From a virus (Duplodnaviria; Heunggongvirae; Uroviricota; Caudoviricetes), in the IMG/VR virus record IMGVR_UViG_2731957842_000006: a stretch of DNA of 37,265 nucleotides. One strand, given 5' to 3'. The position numbers were made by a program, and so were the translations under genes. The notes below the pieces were generated by a model. That model ran no database searches and was not told where the DNA came from. It worked only from the letters and a program-made list of their open reading frames with translations. Shown here one piece after another: positions 1 to 23,112 of this stretch (the first letter of the stretch is position 1; every line of letters starts with the position of its first letter).

Positions 1-672
1 TCATTTGCTTTCAACTGAAATTGATATGTCATCATCAAAATCCTGTTCAGGGAAAATATCCGCACCTTCAAATTGCAGAGGAGCTAAAATAATTCGCTCA
101 CTCCACGCGCTTACTCTGGCAAATCCGTCCTGATTCACCATCCCTACCGGATACGACACCTCACAGCGAATTTCTTTATTTGCCGCATCATAATAATACA
201 GAACGATATAAGTTCGGGTGCTATCTATCGGCGTGATCTCAGCTTTGCCTGAATGTAAGGTATCTGCTTGGAACATATCGAATGTACCCGGATTGTTGTG
301 AACAATCGAGCGAGTTGCCTCTCCCTTTGCATTTTTGGTTTTAGGCAATCCATCAGGACGCCCGGTATGTCCGTCACCTGAGGTAATAATCAGATTAACC
401 CCTTTGCTTGAATTAACGACCATTTCCATGCGATTGACTACTTCAGAAGACCAGCCGTTACCCTTACCAATCAGAATACGGCGAAGCGCGGCAACCATCT
501 CACTCCAAAAGCGGAATCCAGCATCCACTTTAGGGTGGAGCTTACTGGATTTGCGTCGCTCGTATAAAGCAGACATTAACGCATCGCGAATATCATTTTC
601 TGTAAAGCCCAGTTTACTAAGTACAAAATCCGAATCAATTCCTGTATGCAGAACACAATGAGGCATATTCAT
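1..672 (-). CDS. hypothetical protein, cargo gene distal to the tail-fibre module (about 223 aa; alternative start at 690)
   Basis: Complete ORF with stop at 1-3; GGGAGA Shine-Dalgarno 8 nt before the ATG at 672; own promoter-like palindrome upstream; no family recognised by eye. Confidence 0.45.
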   Translation of the reverse strand: MNMPHCVLHTGIDSDFVLSKLGFTENDIRDALMSALYERRKSSKLHPKVDAGFRFWSEMVAALRRILIGKGNGWSSEVVNRMEMVVNSSKGVNLIITSGDGHTGRPDGLPKTKNAKGEATRSIVHNNPGTFDMFQADTLHSGKAEITPIDSTRTYIVLYYYDAANKEIRCEVSYPVGMVNQDGFARVSAWSERIILAPLQFEGADIFPEQDFDDDISISVESK

Positions 673-694
673 GAAAGTTTCTCCCATCACTTTT

Positions 695-739
695 ACTTCT
701 TGATTTTATCATAAAATTTATGAAAAAATCAAGAAGTGA
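695..739 (-). promoter_or_regulatory. perfect 13-bp inverted repeat (ACTTCTTGATTTT / AAAATCAAGAAGT, 17-bp near-palindromic spacer) overlapping a sigma70-like promoter
   Basis: On the minus strand -35 TTGATT (727-732), 18-bp spacer, -10 TAAAAT (703-708), about 30 nt upstream of the start at 672; operator-like dyad symmetry. Confidence 0.4.
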
Positions 740-908
740 CACCCTACAAGCGATTGTAGACTTTCTCTTGTTTTCTTACGTTCCTGCTCTCCAATTGCGC
801 AATTGATTTCTTCAACAATGTGAGAGTACACATCATAAACCTCCGACTGCAGCCAGCAACCGGAGCCTCATTCTTCAGATACCAGAACAACTCACTGCGA
901 CCTATTCG

Positions 909-1642
909 TTACTCAACATTAAATGCTCGTATCGCATCTAAATCCTCCAGAGTGTCTAACGCTTCTTTCTTCTCTCGCTGACGGCGATAAATCTCGTCAT
1001 TGCGTTCAACAACAGCCTGCGCCATTGCTGCTGCCAGTTCTTCCGGTTCCGGCATTGACAGCTTCACCTGCTGGTTTTCCGCATCGCCCCATACCATGGT
1101 TTTTCGCGCTGTGTCAGACTTTGATGCCATTACTGCCGGATAAAGACGAGCCATTGAGTCGGGGCCAGCATTCCAGGTGCGACCGTTCCATTCGAACGTG
1201 AACGGCTGCGCTTCCTGTTCTGTGCTCCACACCTCGATTTCCCGCTTTCTGGCATCCTTTCCCACGGCGATAAGTTCTGACGTGACGGTGAATGCAGGGC
1301 TGTCCAGTGGCGCTTTTGTTTTCGTCTCGTCCGTGACGGTTTTGACAGCCTTTGGCGTGGCTGCCAGTTCTTCGCTGTCGTTGTCTGTATCACTACAGAG
1401 TTGCGCCAGACCTTTTTTGTCGTGGAAGCATTGCTTCCCTTCAGATCATCAACTATCCATTGCGCCTCGTCCCTGTGCTGTTTCGCGCTCTGCTGCGCCT
1501 GCACCACAGTTTCCTGTCACCACATCGGCAACTGTGCGCATCACACCTCTGAGGTGTTTACCCGGGATTTCAGAGTTATGTGGCATCCGTACATGGGGAT
1601 GCCTGCGCCATCAATCAGTGCACCTGATATCACTACAGACAT
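909..1642 (-). pseudogene. lambda Stf-like side tail fibre remnant (N-terminal 33 codons, internal deletion with in-frame stops, frame break, divergent C-terminus)
   Basis: Manual translation: MSVVISGALIDGAGIPMYGCHITLKSRVNTSEV then TGA at 1541-1543, resembling the lambda Stf N-terminus; later AQQSAKQHRDEAQ...TTKK / GLAQL...LAATPKAVK...APLDSP resembles the Stf middle region but changes frame at T6 (1413-1418); track ORFs 1130..1507 and 909..1265 are pieces of it. Confidence 0.55.
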
Positions 1643-1665
1643 AGTTTTTCTCGCGATAAATTAAA

Positions 1666-2211
1666 TCAGGAAGAGGCTTCCAGAGAGACGGGCCATTCAA
1701 TGGCGTTATATGAGGTTTTATCAGTGATGGTGCTGAAATCCATCGCCTGCAGCGATTTCGCGTAAATGCGGTACGCTTTCAGCTTCTCCCTGTCGTCGTC
1801 ACTGATTAATCCCAGCAGCAGGTCTTTTTCCCATTCGCTGGTCATGATGCTGACCCGTTGTAACAGGGCATCGCGCTCATCTTCCGCTTTAAGTTTGTAG
1901 TCGAAGACAAATTTATCGTCGCGGTAAAACCAGTAACCAGGCACGGTAATACGGCGGTTAGCGGTAATATCAGGAACTTCAATAACACTGGCGTTACGGG
2001 GTTCAATGCCTGTCACATCCTTACCGACCCAAACCACGCGCCCGTCTCCGGTGTAAACCATTTTTATGGTGTCACTGGCAAAATTTTTCAGCTCTTCATA
2101 CCAGTTTTTGTCATCTTCCGAAAAAAGCCAGGTGATACCATGTTGTTTTGTCATCTGATATTGTTCTGCGGTTTTCGGATTGCCTGCAGTAATATTTTTT
2201 AAATGCAACAT
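1666..2211 (-). CDS. tail fibre assembly protein (Tfa/U-like chaperone)
   Basis: 181-aa ORF immediately downstream of the tail fibre gene; sequence and position typical of Tfa proteins. Confidence 0.75.
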   Translation of the reverse strand: MLHLKNITAGNPKTAEQYQMTKQHGITWLFSEDDKNWYEELKNFASDTIKMVYTGDGRVVWVGKDVTGIEPRNASVIEVPDITANRRITVPGYWFYRDDKFVFDYKLKAEDERDALLQRVSIMTSEWEKDLLLGLISDDDREKLKAYRIYAKSLQAMDFSTITDKTSYNAIEWPVSLEASS

Positions 2212-2213
2212 TG

Positions 2214-3767
2214 TTAAACACTCGCCACGTTATACCAGGTGCCGTTAATCAGTTTCTGAAGCGGTCGGTAATACACGCCGTTGACGTTATCCGCTGAATT
2301 TTTACCAGTATCCGATATCGATATCCCTGACAATCCGTGTCCCGCAGGAGCGTGATATGTCCAGGAGATTACATTGCTGCCAGGTTTGTAATACATTTCG
2401 GAACCATAGCGCACATCCTGCACGCCGCCATTTCGCTGCTGATAACGGGCATCGAAATTTCCATAGTTTGATGGGGTCATCTGTCCGTTTACAGCGAATG
2501 TGATACTGCCATCGGTATTTCTCTGGCTGTAAAAATGCCAGCCGGAATCATCACCAAGCTCTGCAACTACAGGTCGGGATGAATTACCCCATAAATTAAA
2601 CGTTGCGTTTTTCGTGGAGTTGTTGGCGCTGGATAACGTGAATTTTTTAGCATTTCCGGCCTGAATATTTTTTAACGCTATCGCCACACCATTCTGGAAA
2701 CGAAATACATGCTGTCCATTCGCATAAACATCCAGAATGCCGTCGCCGTTTTGTTTTATACCTGTATCGTTATCCCCGAAAGCAATTGAGTTTCCGCCCA
2801 GCGCGTTCTTAACGCCGATACCCAGTGCACCATTGACCTGAGAACCACCGCCAACAGACACTTTATGCGACATGGATATCTCTCCTGTCCGCAAATTAAT
2901 GGTGAGCGGACGCAGGGGACCAATATCTCCATTCTCGCCCTGACCTTCACTAGTAGGGATAAGGTGCAGGCACTCTTCAGAACGGCGAAAAATAAGGCCA
3001 AAAGCCTCGTTAAAAATCCTCAATGCATTAACACCACGTATTTTCAGCTCCCCGGTCATCAAATCACCAGATTTTTTTACATATCGCAGATCAAAATCTG
3101 AATAGATATTGCCGGGGTTTATCACACTGAAATAGCTTTTCTCGCTATCAAGAAGGCAAATCAAAGGAATACCCTTAATGATATCATTCGCTACCAGCTC
3201 GGACTTGTTCCCCTTATAAAGTGGGAACGTACCAAGAACCTTTCCGCCTAGTGTTAGTTGAAGTGTCGCCGCGTTGGTATTGTTCTGAACGGGGAAAACT
3301 ATAATCGGAGTTCGTAGCGTCCAATCTGTACCTCCATTAACAAAAAACGTCGAGGGAAGTTCCAGCGTCAGTGCGTTTGCAGTGCCACCAGTAACACCCG
3401 CAATATAATGACCGCTCTGAAGCTGCGCTATCTGTACGAAATAGTTTTCCGATCCACGCGTGGCAAAGTTAGCCACAACGTCATTAAGGGACCAACCTTT
3501 CGCGGTTGTTCCTTCCTGCCCACGAATGACTTTCAGCACATCACCGCTTACCGATACCAGGTGACAAATCTCAAATGCAGACTCTTTATTATCGGTAAGC
3601 GTAATTTTTGCATAGACGCGTTGCCCGTTCGATTTATTTTCAAAATCGGCAGAAAGCAATTTTGCAAATTTAGCTCCCGTGCCCGGCATCACCGGAATAT
3701 CAGTCTGAATCGTCGTAATATCACCAGCCAGTGCTGAAACAACGTTATTTCCGAATCCAAGAATCAT
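2214..3767 (-). CDS. tail fibre protein (517 aa)
   Basis: Position after the baseplate J-like and I-like genes and before Tfa; Gly/Asn/Ser-rich repetitive C-terminal half; start overlaps the upstream stop. Confidence 0.7.
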   Translation of the reverse strand: MILGFGNNVVSALAGDITTIQTDIPVMPGTGAKFAKLLSADFENKSNGQRVYAKITLTDNKESAFEICHLVSVSGDVLKVIRGQEGTTAKGWSLNDVVANFATRGSENYFVQIAQLQSGHYIAGVTGGTANALTLELPSTFFVNGGTDWTLRTPIIVFPVQNNTNAATLQLTLGGKVLGTFPLYKGNKSELVANDIIKGIPLICLLDSEKSYFSVINPGNIYSDFDLRYVKKSGDLMTGELKIRGVNALRIFNEAFGLIFRRSEECLHLIPTSEGQGENGDIGPLRPLTINLRTGEISMSHKVSVGGGSQVNGALGIGVKNALGGNSIAFGDNDTGIKQNGDGILDVYANGQHVFRFQNGVAIALKNIQAGNAKKFTLSSANNSTKNATFNLWGNSSRPVVAELGDDSGWHFYSQRNTDGSITFAVNGQMTPSNYGNFDARYQQRNGGVQDVRYGSEMYYKPGSNVISWTYHAPAGHGLSGISISDTGKNSADNVNGVYYRPLQKLINGTWYNVASV

Positions 3768-5641: not shown

Positions 5642-6801
5642 TTATTCAACCTCTTCTAAACTGCTCACTCTGGACCCTCGGCGGAAATTATCATCATTTT
5701 TAACATACTCATATGAATCCAGAATCAAACCAGATATGCGAAGTATATCTTCCGGATTAGTTATATGTATCCTTTTACCATCCGTATCAAGTCGAGCTCG
5801 TCTTATTTCATTCAACTGAACTTCACTAAGCGAAATAGGTAATGTTATAAATGAAGATTTTTTATCATAAAATCTTAACAGCCATCTATTAGTTTTACCA
5901 TTCAATAGTACACCAAAATATGACTCAGTATCTTTATATTCTATATTATCTTCTGTTTGTATGATTTGTTTTACCCTTTCAAATAGTTCCAATTCTTTGG
6001 CTGTGGTTATTATGTTGGGGTTTTCTTCATCAACAATGGCGTTATTAACTTGTGTATCCGTTGCATCATTTTCTTTAGTTTGCTCTACCGGTTGTGTAGA
6101 TAGCCCGGAAACCACCATTGCGCTAACAGCGCGCTCAACGGCCTGTTTAACTAATGGAGTCACGAACTCAAGAAATCTCTGATTAAGTTGTCTCTCAATA
6201 TTTGAACGACTAGCAACATATCGAACAAACTCCAGATCAACTTCACGAAGACTAGAACTGATTGTTTTAGTAAATGAATTCAAATAAACACTTTCTTCAG
6301 CCAGTGTCCGTAAAGCCTCTGGTTTGAATTTATCATAACGAAAACGAAATAATTGTGTAATATCGGAGTGAGTTAGAGAATCCATTCTTATTTTTAAAAA
6401 CGGCGTTGAATCCATTATGTTTTTTGTTTCAAATCCGTAAAAAAACGCCATTCAACACCATTTGTAATGGCTGATATAGTAACTTCCGGTGTTGAATTAA
6501 AATATCTTGATAGCTGTGGGCAGTGATTATCAATTTGTTCTGAAAACGATTTCGCCTCAATGAACATCACAGGAACATCATGACAAAATAAAGCGTAATC
6601 AACCCGTTCATTAGCCTTAACCCCGGGGAAGTCAGCACTATACTCAGCTTTGACTTTTCTTGGATCATACGGAGTAAAACCAAGAATATCTAGTAATGGC
6701 ATAATGAGTGCTTGTTTTGTCGTTTCTTCAGTTGTACAAAACACCCCCATTTTTGCAACATGCTCTGTGTGTATTTTTAACTTATTTGCAAAATTTTCCA
6801 T
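5642..6801 (-). CDS. HsdR-N-like PD-(D/E)xK nuclease-domain protein with about 265-aa uncharacterised C-terminal region; reading frame broken at a homopolymer (ORFs 6415..6801 and 5642..6451)
   Basis: N-terminal 128 aa carry the restriction-endonuclease-like pattern (PLLDILGF ... VDYALF ... VMFIEAKS ... QLSRYF ... ITNGVEWRFF); GGAGGAG Shine-Dalgarno 8 nt before the ATG at 6801; frame changes at A7 6439-6445 (one extra base would fuse both ORFs); roughly 33-35 percent GC by eye versus about 50 percent in flanks. Confidence 0.5.
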
Positions 6802-6829
6802 GCTTGTCTCCTCCATGGTAACAATATGT

Positions 6830-6859
6830 ATTTTGCAAATCCGAAATAATATATGTCAA
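6830..6859 (-). promoter_or_regulatory. sigma70-like promoter of the inserted nuclease-domain gene
   Basis: Minus strand TTGACA (6854-6859), 18-bp spacer, CAAAAT (6830-6835), about 30 nt upstream of the ATG. Confidence 0.35.
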
Positions 6860-6950
6860 TATGCTCCAGCTTAGAAAATTACTCGCCCCCCTAAAATATC
6901 TCTCTACAGCACTCCAAACCAAGGTAAAAGTTTTATCATAAAACTGTGAT

Positions 6951-7298
6951 TCATACCGGCACCTGCGTCCGGTAACTGGTCCCATTAAAAAACACAACAT
7001 CGATGTTATAGGTGGGGTTATCTGCTCCATCTACCTTTGAAATTGCCAGTGATGCAAAATACCCAGCAAACTGTTGCTGAACCATGTTCACATAGTAGTC
7101 TGGGTAAATCTGCTGCACGATGCACTGCTGTGCAGGAATACCGTAATTCGCGTAAAACGGCGACTCCCCCAATCCCAGCTTTAACGTCTGAATGAGCGTC
7201 GTCAGCCAGCCGTAGGAGAAATCACCGTTGGCGTCAGATTCTACTGCAACCCATTTTTTGTTGCCGTTCGCGTCGGTGACGCGGCCCCATGTTCTCAT
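6951..7298 (-). CDS. putative baseplate component (115 aa)
   Basis: ORF in the baseplate block between the spike-like gene and the J-like gene; family not assignable by eye. Confidence 0.4.
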   Translation of the reverse strand: MRTWGRVTDANGNKKWVAVESDANGDFSYGWLTTLIQTLKLGLGESPFYANYGIPAQQCIVQQIYPDYYVNMVQQQFAGYFASLAISKVDGADNPTYNIDVVFFNGTSYRTQVPV

Positions 7299-7498
7299 CG
7301 TGCCCCCATCACTTTAACTAACTCTGTCAGTACTGGTGAAAAGGCAAATGCTAAAGCTACGAGTGCAGCGGTGTAATACATGCGTCGTAAGGTATTGCTT
7401 TTTGCCACTAATTTTAAGGCTTTCACAATCCAGTCTCCTCCGCTAAAATTAATCACGGAAGACCTCCAAACATACGTAATCATCCCTTGCGTATTCAA
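7295..7498 (-). CDS. small hypothetical protein (67 aa or shorter), hydrophobic C-terminal half
   Basis: ORF whose stop overlaps the downstream start; weak support only. Confidence 0.25.
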   Translation of the reverse strand: MNTQGMITYVWRSSVINFSGGDWIVKALKLVAKSNTLRRMYYTAALVALAFAFSPVLTELVKVMGAR

Positions 7499-7511
7499 GG
7501 TGAGAAACAGA

Positions 7512-7539
7512 ACCCCCCGACTGGGCCAACAGTCGGGGG
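7512..7539. terminator. strong GC hairpin (11-bp stem CCCCCCGACTG / CAGTCGGGGGG, 6-nt loop) inside the baseplate operon
   Basis: Perfect inverted repeat followed by T-rich sequence on both strands, between the 7581..8294 and 7295..7498 ORFs. Confidence 0.3.
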
Positions 7540-7580
7540 GTTCGTTTTATGGTTAGAATTTAAAGTGAAATGAACCGGTA

Positions 7581-22860: not shown

Positions 22861-23112
22861 AAGGATGTATTTCCGGGCTTGGCTTAGTATATGACCAATC
22901 ACAGTTTTGTTTTTGTCGATGTTTACAACATCAGAATAATGCATTTAAAGTAGTAAAAATATTTGCTAATAATGCATTATTCCGATGGTGTAAAAAATGG
23001 CACTGGAACCGCAACGAATATCACTCATTACAGAACAGGGGGCGCAAGGAACCATAAAAAACACCCTACATATATTATGTCAGTGCCTAACACAATCTCG
23101 CCTTAGTTACTG

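Follow-up and report, generated by a model that had tools for sequence, protein, structure and literature searches.

What is a gene with no recognizable domain doing at the very end of an Escherichia coli prophage, beyond the tail fiber genes and under what looks like a promoter of its own? The window analyzed here is a stretch of 37,265 nucleotides of caudoviral DNA, and the locus in question occupies positions 1 to 739, at its first edge. A position beyond the tail fiber genes at a prophage end is a classic moron site, and prophage-borne defense toxin-antitoxin (TA) modules at such positions are well documented. An earlier note had read the locus as a repressor-controlled, lysogen-expressed cargo gene of unrecognized family. 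Comparison with related loci points to a different answer: positions 1 to 739 very probably carry the promoter/operator and the first gene, rmrT, of a RosmerTA anti-phage TA module, the final operon of a Rac-site prophage.

The open reading frame of about 223 codons noticed earlier is present on the minus strand, preceded by a ribosome binding site.

1 to 672, minus strand: coding sequence of rmrT, the predicted RosmerTA toxin (stop codon at 1 to 3, ATG at 670 to 672, 223 amino acids; from PADLOC and homology)
681 to 685, minus strand: Shine-Dalgarno sequence GGGAG, 8 nucleotides upstream of the rmrT ATG at 672 (from reading the sequence)

Homologous loci have a GGAG equivalent at the same spacing upstream of rmrT. 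Some RefSeq records place the start 5 codons further upstream (228 amino acids); the 223-residue start was favored because of the Shine-Dalgarno spacing, the equivalent ATG in all homologs, and the RefSeq annotation of 223 amino acids in strain PapRG-04-4.

The description of the family as unrecognized held for general domain collections. The window protein had no match in Pfam, PHROGs, or NCBIfam, none of 81 sampled family members had a Pfam domain or pointed to a consistent family, and searches of PDB sequences with the single protein and with its profile returned nothing significant. It did not hold for HMM searches against PADLOC, where the protein matched the RmrT model PDLC03935 from end to end (E of 1.4e-59). 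The same model is matched by the verified RosmerTA toxin of E. coli OLC-716 (E of 1.1e-52), which was taken, together with its antitoxin, from a supplementary table of Millman et al. 2022. The two toxins share 29% identity over 211 residues (BLASTP E of 4e-19), and the verified toxin aligned to the profile of the window protein's family with an hhalign probability of 99.8%. An exhaustive profile search found 1,469 cluster representatives of the RmrT family with an E value of at most 1e-3; the best 150 of these are mostly about 205 to 235 amino acids long. In a profile search, the named matches among the best 120 were proteobacterial only. By homology, the open reading frame at 1 to 672 is the predicted RmrT, the toxin of a RosmerTA defense system.

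A RosmerTA toxin is expected to have a partner, and the sequence at the window's edge indicates where it starts.

2 to 4, minus strand: start codon of rmrA, the antitoxin gene, in an ATGA overlap with the rmrT stop codon; the remainder of this 368-amino-acid gene lies outside the window

The first letters of the window, tcat, read ATGA on the minus strand, the rmrT stop codon overlapping a start codon. Four complete E. coli genomes, that of strain RM11911 among them, match positions 1 to 1700 with 100% identity; in RM11911, a 368-residue HTH_3 and Peptidase_M78 gene begins at this overlap. Its product matches PADLOC RmrA (E of 1.6e-142), has Pfam hits to Peptidase_M78 (E of 4.6e-21) and HTH_3 (E of 3.7e-10) with an intact HExxH zinc motif (HELAH), and shares 44% identity with the verified OLC-716 RmrA from end to end. 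RmrA is accordingly annotated here, from its sequence, as a predicted XRE-type helix-turn-helix (HTH) protein with an M78 (ImmA/IrrE-like) zinc peptidase domain whose HExxH motif is intact.

The arrangement is general. The antitoxin gene directly follows rmrT in all eight complete E. coli genomes with this rmrT, in 11 of 11 loci from other Enterobacterales that reach far enough, in 9 of 9 IMG/VR contigs that run past the rmrT stop (from a scan with a profile built on a 16-sequence alignment), and in 6 of 6 more remote relatives from metagenomes or genomes; it was present in all 26 related loci that continue past the rmrT stop. The idea of a single cargo gene is thereby abandoned, since rmrA follows in every related locus that reaches far enough. 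That rmrA also lies beyond the edge of this window is judged from genomes 99.5 to 100% identical over the rmrT region, and rmrT is the predicted first cistron, rmrA the second, of a TA operon. All features of a RosmerTA system that are open to testing in silico were found: the window protein matches an RmrT family, the two genes are adjacent and co-oriented (rmrA itself lying outside the window), and the RM11911 RmrA is a predicted zinc peptidase antitoxin with an N-terminal XRE HTH.

The solitary appearance of rmrT has a probable explanation in how provirus boundaries are drawn, because four provirus contigs in IMG/VR, each encoding an RmrT identical to that of the window, end precisely on the rmrT stop codon. 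The lone-gene look is thus most likely an artefact of a boundary call that splits the operon. Such calls may halve a TA operon, which detectors that require two genes then miss, and after trimming the toxin resembles a moron of unrecognized family. With its partner restored, the "orphan cargo gene" is part of a prophage-borne defense module that is ordinary in kind but rare; this rmrT occurs in 8 of 5,426 complete E. coli genomes.

The RosmerTA system of E. coli OLC-716 is a verified anti-phage system that defends from its native promoter at 37°C, and a ΔrmrA version of it could not be transformed (10.1101/2022.05.11.491447). Like the operon at this locus, it is a bicistron with the toxin gene first, with a toxin of the same PDLC03935 family and a 44% identical RmrA of similar length (370 amino acids, versus 368 here) that combines HTH, M78, and HExxH. 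The differences are a toxin that is only 29% identical, a 9-nucleotide gap between the genes rather than a 4-nucleotide overlap, and carriage on a P4-like element rather than at the end of a Rac-site prophage. Two further modules can be likened to rmrTA by description, not by toxin sequence. In Pectobacteriaceae and E. coli E101, the presence of a Rosmer-type module turns clpP or clpX into an essential gene; the prophage TA pair of E. coli E101 is the case in which clpP becomes essential (10.1101/2020.05.25.114553), and in Vibrio mimicus, Vmi480 is lethal without Vmi470 (PMC4671572). In both the Vmi480/Vmi470 and E101 pairs a toxin gene of unrecognized family comes first, followed by the gene for an antitoxin of about 360 residues with HTH and zinc peptidase domains; the antitoxin gene cannot be deleted alone, and the pair resides on a prophage or island. 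At the locus studied here, RmrA would neutralize RmrT; were RmrA lost or inactivated when another phage infects, RmrT would be released and would stop growth, an abortive infection.

How RmrT might stop growth was approached through its predicted structure. An AlphaFold2 model based on an 81-sequence alignment (pLDDT of 89.3, pTM of 0.83), which superseded an earlier model from 16 close sequences (pLDDT of 68.5), has three N-terminal helices, a beta-beta-beta unit, a helix, a long flexible loop, and a second beta-beta-beta unit. Foldseek comparison of this model with the PDB gave no match with an E value of at most 0.001; the best and longest structural matches were to NaeI, ThaI, SfiI, BglI, SwaI, and RecU, and the predicted fold bears a weak resemblance to that of type II restriction endonucleases. 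The PD-(D/E)xK superfamily has an alpha-beta-beta-beta-alpha-beta core. RmrT was not assigned to this superfamily because the catalytic D...(D/E)xK motif is missing: predicted strands 2 and 3 have no conserved acidic or lysine residues, and the residues that are conserved (D100, K113, K116, D162, E167, R169, and E171) lie off these strands.

The alignment gave a second, sharper lead, located in the flexible loop.

271 to 285, minus strand: codons for T130-F-D-M-F134 (TFDMF) in the flexible loop of RmrT, resembling a beta-clamp-binding motif

The motif comes right after N127, an invariant residue, where the low-confidence loop (pLDDT of 53 to 58) begins, and the family consensus in these columns is Q-L-[D/S]-L-F-P-[D/E]. 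Within 14 residues of this anchor, Qxx[LMI][FWL] occurs in 109 of 238 family proteins, most commonly as QLDMF (14), QLSLF (13), QQDMF (8), and QLDLF (6), and another 43 of the 238 have [DEST][LM]F without the Q. In the remaining approximately 205 residues the pattern occurs in only 42 proteins, which makes the loop about 38-fold enriched per residue. The TFDMF of the window protein lacks the Q; within the subfamily of this protein, T130 and F134 do not vary. The bacterial sliding-clamp-binding motif is QL[S/D]LF or, more generally, QxxLF (PMC9690074, PMC12309361). For the E. coli clamp, the QADMF of the polymerase III alpha subunit has a KD of 0.8 µM, the AADMF mutant still binds at 4.2 µM, and QLDLF binds at about 7 nM (PMC12309361). 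No description of a clamp-binding-like motif in the RmrT family was found in the literature searched.

Two clamp-targeting systems provide context. RipAB (Spr1630/Spr1629) of Streptococcus pneumoniae is a Rosmer-family TA system in which, according to a 2025 study, RipA interacts with DnaN, suppressors of RipA lethality map to the DnaN hydrophobic cleft that is the QL[SD]LF-binding site, and RipA toxicity is restrained by ClpX (PMC12795458). The RipAB antitoxin likewise has HTH and ImmA-like peptidase domains, and the RmrT family carries a motif of the type that binds the cleft; RipA and the RmrT family are likened by description, not by sequence. Unlike the case made here, the RipA paper mentions no clamp-binding motif, and the output of RipAB is competence rather than phage defense (PMC12795458). 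In Caulobacter SocAB, the toxin blocks the sliding clamp via a clamp-binding motif (PMC9690074). Occupation of the clamp cleft is the toxicity proposed for RmrT too, although the proteins are unrelated and SocA, rather than being an HTH-peptidase, is an adaptor of ClpXP.

Clamp binding by RmrT is a lead, read from a loop motif and given somewhat less than an even chance. In its full form, the proposal is that toxins of the RmrT family, the verified one included, may be sliding-clamp-directed effectors, acting via the motif on a loop of an endonuclease-like domain, in a module controlled by an approximately 45-bp nested dyad that RmrA reads; as a whole it is tentative, a possibility just short of the balance. 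RmrT could then, speculatively, act at the replisome, either by blocking the protein-binding cleft of the clamp or as a clamp-tethered nuclease on DNA. Clamp docking, if true, would stall host-dependent replication or tether a nuclease to DNA, and the motif would connect E. coli RosmerTA to the DnaN-targeting RipA and to the ClpX/ClpP dependence of Rosmer modules. It offers a second testable handle on the RosmerTA mechanism, besides the operator described below. The conserved loop might instead be a contact with RmrA. One explanation built on that role is that RmrT kills purely as a PD-(D/E)xK-type DNA or RNA nuclease and uses the QL[DS]LF-like loop to dock RmrA; we consider it unlikely, if still a serious alternative.

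The region upstream of rmrT contains the elements from which the earlier note had inferred repressor control.

727 to 732, minus strand: predicted −35 element, TTGATT (promoter scan)
703 to 711, minus strand: predicted extended −10 element, TGATAAAAT, with TG at 710 to 711 and TAAAAT at 703 to 708 (promoter scan)
695 to 737, no strand: dyad-symmetric putative promoter/operator of 43 bp (inverted-repeat search and conservation)
695 to 706 and 726 to 737: outer half-sites ACTTCTTGATTT, part of the 43-bp dyad
709 to 715 and 717 to 723: inner palindrome TCATAAA / TTTATGA, with the dyad axis at 716

The predicted −35 and −10 elements, which form the one sigma-70-type site that the scan gave on this strand, are separated by an 18-nucleotide spacer and match the consensus hexamers at 9 of 12 positions. 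In the scan, which covered a 3.4-kb stretch around rmrT in a reference locus (equivalent to the window up to about position 1700 plus about 1.7 kb past the window edge; L001), 7 such sites were found versus 4.9 expected by chance. The scan by itself is therefore not significant, and the promoter is credible because it is conserved across related loci. The perfect 13-bp inverted repeat noted earlier is real and is nested within a larger one: arms of 21 nucleotides each (695 to 715 and 717 to 737) are 95% complementary with 1 nucleotide between them, one arm holding the −35 element and the other the −10. The whole 37-kb window has seven inverted repeats of at least 13 nucleotides, this one included. 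When the dyad was tested for symmetry, 20 of its 22 positions were complementary, compared with 10.8 expected, a value that none of 2,000 shuffles reached. A palindrome overlapping the operon's promoter, as expected of TA autoregulation, is thus present and spans the −35 element, the spacer, and the −10 element.

The dyad proved to be a property of the family rather than of this prophage. Upstream of rmrT, the flanks of the window and of 12 other Enterobacterales loci (52 to 87% toxin identity to the window RmrT) cannot be aligned except for one dyad block, found in 13 of 13: CACTTCTTGATTT-N3-CAT(A/T)A-N3-TTATG-N3-AAATCA(A/T)GAAGT. The block lies at a fixed distance from the Shine-Dalgarno sequence and the rmrT ATG. 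The −35 sequence TTGATT is invariant in 10 aligned loci and is TTG(A/T)TT in the wider family, and the −10 position in 16 related loci is taken by TAAAAT, TATAAA, or TACAAT. The left arm (A)CTTCTTG(A/T)TTT, which holds the −35 element, is shared by distant members and by the verified OLC-716 system; in the distant members, the inner palindrome of the spacer is ACCTCA-N2-TGAGGT, CCTCAT-N2-ATGAGG, or ACCGCA-N2-TGCGGT, and the −10 element is followed by a right arm that complements the left. OLC-716 itself shares this order with the window (−35 in the left arm, inner palindrome in the spacer, −10 ahead of the right arm); its inner palindrome differs, being ACCTCA-N2-TGAGGT there and CATAA-N3-TTATG here.

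Subgroups differ by half a base in the position of the dyad axis, and symmetry was therefore tested locus by locus rather than by counting pairs in an ungapped alignment. All 16 promoters tested, the verified system included, were significant, with 13 to 20 of 22 to 23 positions complementary about one axis versus 8 to 11 expected and at most 2 of 2,000 shuffles reaching the observed value. The arms co-vary between lineages (CCTCA/TGAGG, CCGCA/TGCGG, and CATAA/TTATG), and the dyad promoter of about 45 bp is kept in islands, in a nin region, and on a P4-like carrier alike. These comparisons mark the nested-dyad promoter as a conserved hallmark of the rmrTA module. No description of a family-wide nested-dyad promoter was found in the literature searched; RosmerTA is already known as a system, and it is the dyad promoter and the clamp-like motif that appear to be undescribed in that literature.

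The palindrome can still be taken as a repressor site, as the earlier note proposed, but the prophage's own repressor is not supported as the one that reads it. No exact dyad half-site was found elsewhere in 44 kb comprising the right part of the prophage and the immunity region, looser matches (at most 2 mismatches) numbered 13 against 9.2 ± 2.9, which is chance level, and the intergenic sequence of the immunity region is unrelated to the rmrT dyad. Because the dyad travels with the module into nonphage contexts and is absent from the immunity region, the repressor is most likely RmrA, and the dyad most likely a putative operator of RmrA itself rather than a phage repressor site. From this co-inheritance, and because the prophage has the site nowhere else, we infer as the best reading that the HTH of RmrA binds the dyad and that rmrTA is thereby autoregulated in the manner of classical type II TA operons. 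In the lysogen, a sigma-70 promoter of the operon's own, with an extended −10, would drive transcription, and RmrA would bind the approximately 45-bp dyad over the −35 element, the spacer, the −10 element, and the predicted transcription start. The conserved composite operator is a testable handle and should report on the integrity of RmrA.

XRE repressors that act with M78/COG2856 metalloproteases have been characterized elsewhere: in ImmR/ImmA of ICEBs1 and DdrO/IrrE of Deinococcus, the repressor is cleaved by the protease (PMC10440598). Like RmrA, these systems combine an XRE HTH on a palindromic operator with an M78 peptidase; unlike them, RmrA fuses both domains in one protein, paired with a toxin. 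By analogy, the shared HTH and M78 domains suggest that proteolysis may switch off repression or neutralization.

The outer and inner half-sites of the dyad differ from each other, and a single HTH dimer does not obviously account for all 43 bp. Occupancy could consist of one dimer on the inner site or of a higher-order complex over three helical turns.

Two other interpretations of the palindromic promoter were weighed. The first is that rmrT is a solitary moron of unrecognized family and that its promoter carries an operator for the CI/RacR-type repressor of the prophage. Its location at the prophage end beyond the fiber genes is what such a gene would have, as is a promoter-like site of its own overlapped by a dyad. 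The gene is, however, translationally coupled to rmrA, the dyad moves with the module to islands and to phages with different immunity regions, and exact half-sites exist solely at the rmrT promoter in the 44 kb that include the immunity region of this prophage. This interpretation is largely refuted and retains very little probability.

The second interpretation is that the dyad acts as a nucleic acid structure: an RNA hairpin or terminator for late transcripts reading through, a cruciform, or a recombination site. As RNA, the dyad folds strongly (−29.9 kcal/mol, z = −5.2), and both of its arms co-vary in the family. Against a terminator, the stem is AT-rich without a U-tract after it, and transcription is predicted to start within the right arm, which leaves the operon's own mRNA without the hairpin. 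The arms are also conserved as sequence, with ACTTCTTG near-invariant, whereas the 3-nucleotide linkers show neither conservation nor complementarity, and the same T/T mismatch is retained in 12 of 13 close loci. Rfam searches of window positions 1 to 2500 gave only subthreshold matches of generic hairpins (miRNA) on the dyad, and the module is accompanied by no recombinase. Co-variation of the arms, together with unconserved linkers and a shared mismatch, fits a symmetric protein site better than a hairpin, and a structural role is highly improbable. The reading of the dyad as a putative RmrA operator is retained.

The surroundings of the operon agree with a cargo position beyond the tail fiber genes, as the earlier note had it. 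The carrier prophage sits in the Rac attachment region of E. coli and has Rac-like early genes (recE, kilR, and ydaT) and a baseplate of the contractile-tail type. At its right end the order is fiber gene, fiber assembly gene, remnants of a second fiber with a DUF4376 gene, rmrT, and rmrA, followed by a hairpin with T's about 50 nucleotides downstream of rmrA, a ttcA-like fragment (attR), and uspF. A moron has its own promoter and terminator, lies between or beyond phage modules, and is dispensable for the phage; of these features, the prophage-end location next to attR and uspF and a conserved predicted promoter were observed here. Related copies of rmrTA occur in a Serratia integrative island with an integrase, where the neighbor is a GTPase-based system; in Rouxiella, with Gabija-like genes on one side and a type I restriction-modification system on the other; and in Serratia marcescens, in the nin region of a lambdoid prophage. 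The verified OLC-716 rmrTA is carried in a P4-like element. Occurrence in islands, in a nin region, and in a P4-like element identifies rmrTA as a mobile defense cassette, not a part of the fiber module.

That the open reading frame encodes a tail fiber chaperone or other virion-associated protein of the fiber module, as its adjacency to and shared orientation with fiber, fiber assembly, and DUF4376 genes might suggest, can be dismissed, given the strong PADLOC RmrT match, the homologs in nonphage islands, and the silence of Pfam and PHROGs on a gene whose fiber-related neighbors they recognize as Caudo_TAP, DUF4376, or tail fiber families.

The GC content of rmrTA did not differ from that of neighboring genes and gave no foreign signature. 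One further element lies upstream of the operon.

841 to 865, minus strand: weak terminator-like hairpin, located after the DUF4376 remnant and ahead of the rmrT promoter (terminator scan; poor T-run)

The location of this hairpin is only suggestive of a late operon insulated from rmrTA.

The rmrT stop codon is the exact end of four IMG/VR provirus contigs (L025, L027, L028 and L030) that encode the same RmrT, and the left edge of the window (position 1) likewise falls exactly on this codon. The operon formed by this toxin gene and the adjoining antitoxin gene, rmrA, thus seems to be cut in two by provirus boundary calling, and system-level defence finders that require both genes would therefore miss RosmerTA here.

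RmrT ends in a conserved acidic tail, FPE(E/Q)DFxDD(I/V)SI (residues 200 to 223; window 4-75, minus strand), for which model confidence was low. Because Rosmer-type modules reportedly depend on ClpX/ClpP, this tail could be a contact site for the antitoxin RmrA or a degradation signal.

In 10 complete E. coli genomes (for example, E. coli 2011C-4251, NZ_CP027388.1 3959077-3966475, locus L024), the experimentally verified RosmerTA sequence of E. coli OLC-716 is carried in a P4-like element that includes a DNA primase and an Icd-like gene. The promoter of this verified system shares the nested-dyad frame of the rmrT promoter in the window. Since the window dyad (695-737) is nearly perfect, its plus strand also reads as an opposite-facing promoter-like site, TTGATT / 18 nt / TG-n-AAAAAT, that points towards a DUF4376 remnant; divergent or antisense transcription from this mirror-image site is possible.

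Beside rmrT (window 909-1642, minus strand), a second tail-fibre gene is present as a deletion remnant next to the truncated DUF4376 open reading frame (ORF). The corresponding position in E. coli C7 and PapRG-04-4 is occupied by an intact fibre, about 475 aa long, together with a DUF4376 gene of 187 to 189 aa. A second cargo islet lies within the baseplate module (window 5642-7548, minus strand), where a PADLOC search returned no matches. The islet contains a nuclease-like HSDR_N gene (type I R-subunit N-terminal); E. coli RM11911 has it in intact form, with 386 aa, but in the window it is broken into two ORFs of 269 and 133 aa. Further features of these two regions and of the rest of the prophage are as follows.

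Further features of the window
909-1265 (909-1409 as annotated), minus: truncated DUF4376 ORF
1541-1642, minus: N-terminal fragment of the second tail-fibre gene, 33 aa
6951-7298, minus: orphan ORF of the islet, 115 aa
7505-7548: GC-rich hairpin of the islet
22922-22994: inverted repeat, 24-nt arms, 92% complementary, 25-nt spacing

Coordinate mapping to RM11911 places the inverted repeat within a region annotated as a terminase gene. The prophage at locus L015 (NZ_CP044313.1 484000-528300) joins a contractile-tail-type baseplate (J/gp47) to Rac-type early genes (recE, kilR, ydaT, ydaV and hokD). It also carries three tRNA genes and, immediately downstream of its terminase genes, a 478-aa gene annotated as "anti-CBASS Acb1 family protein."
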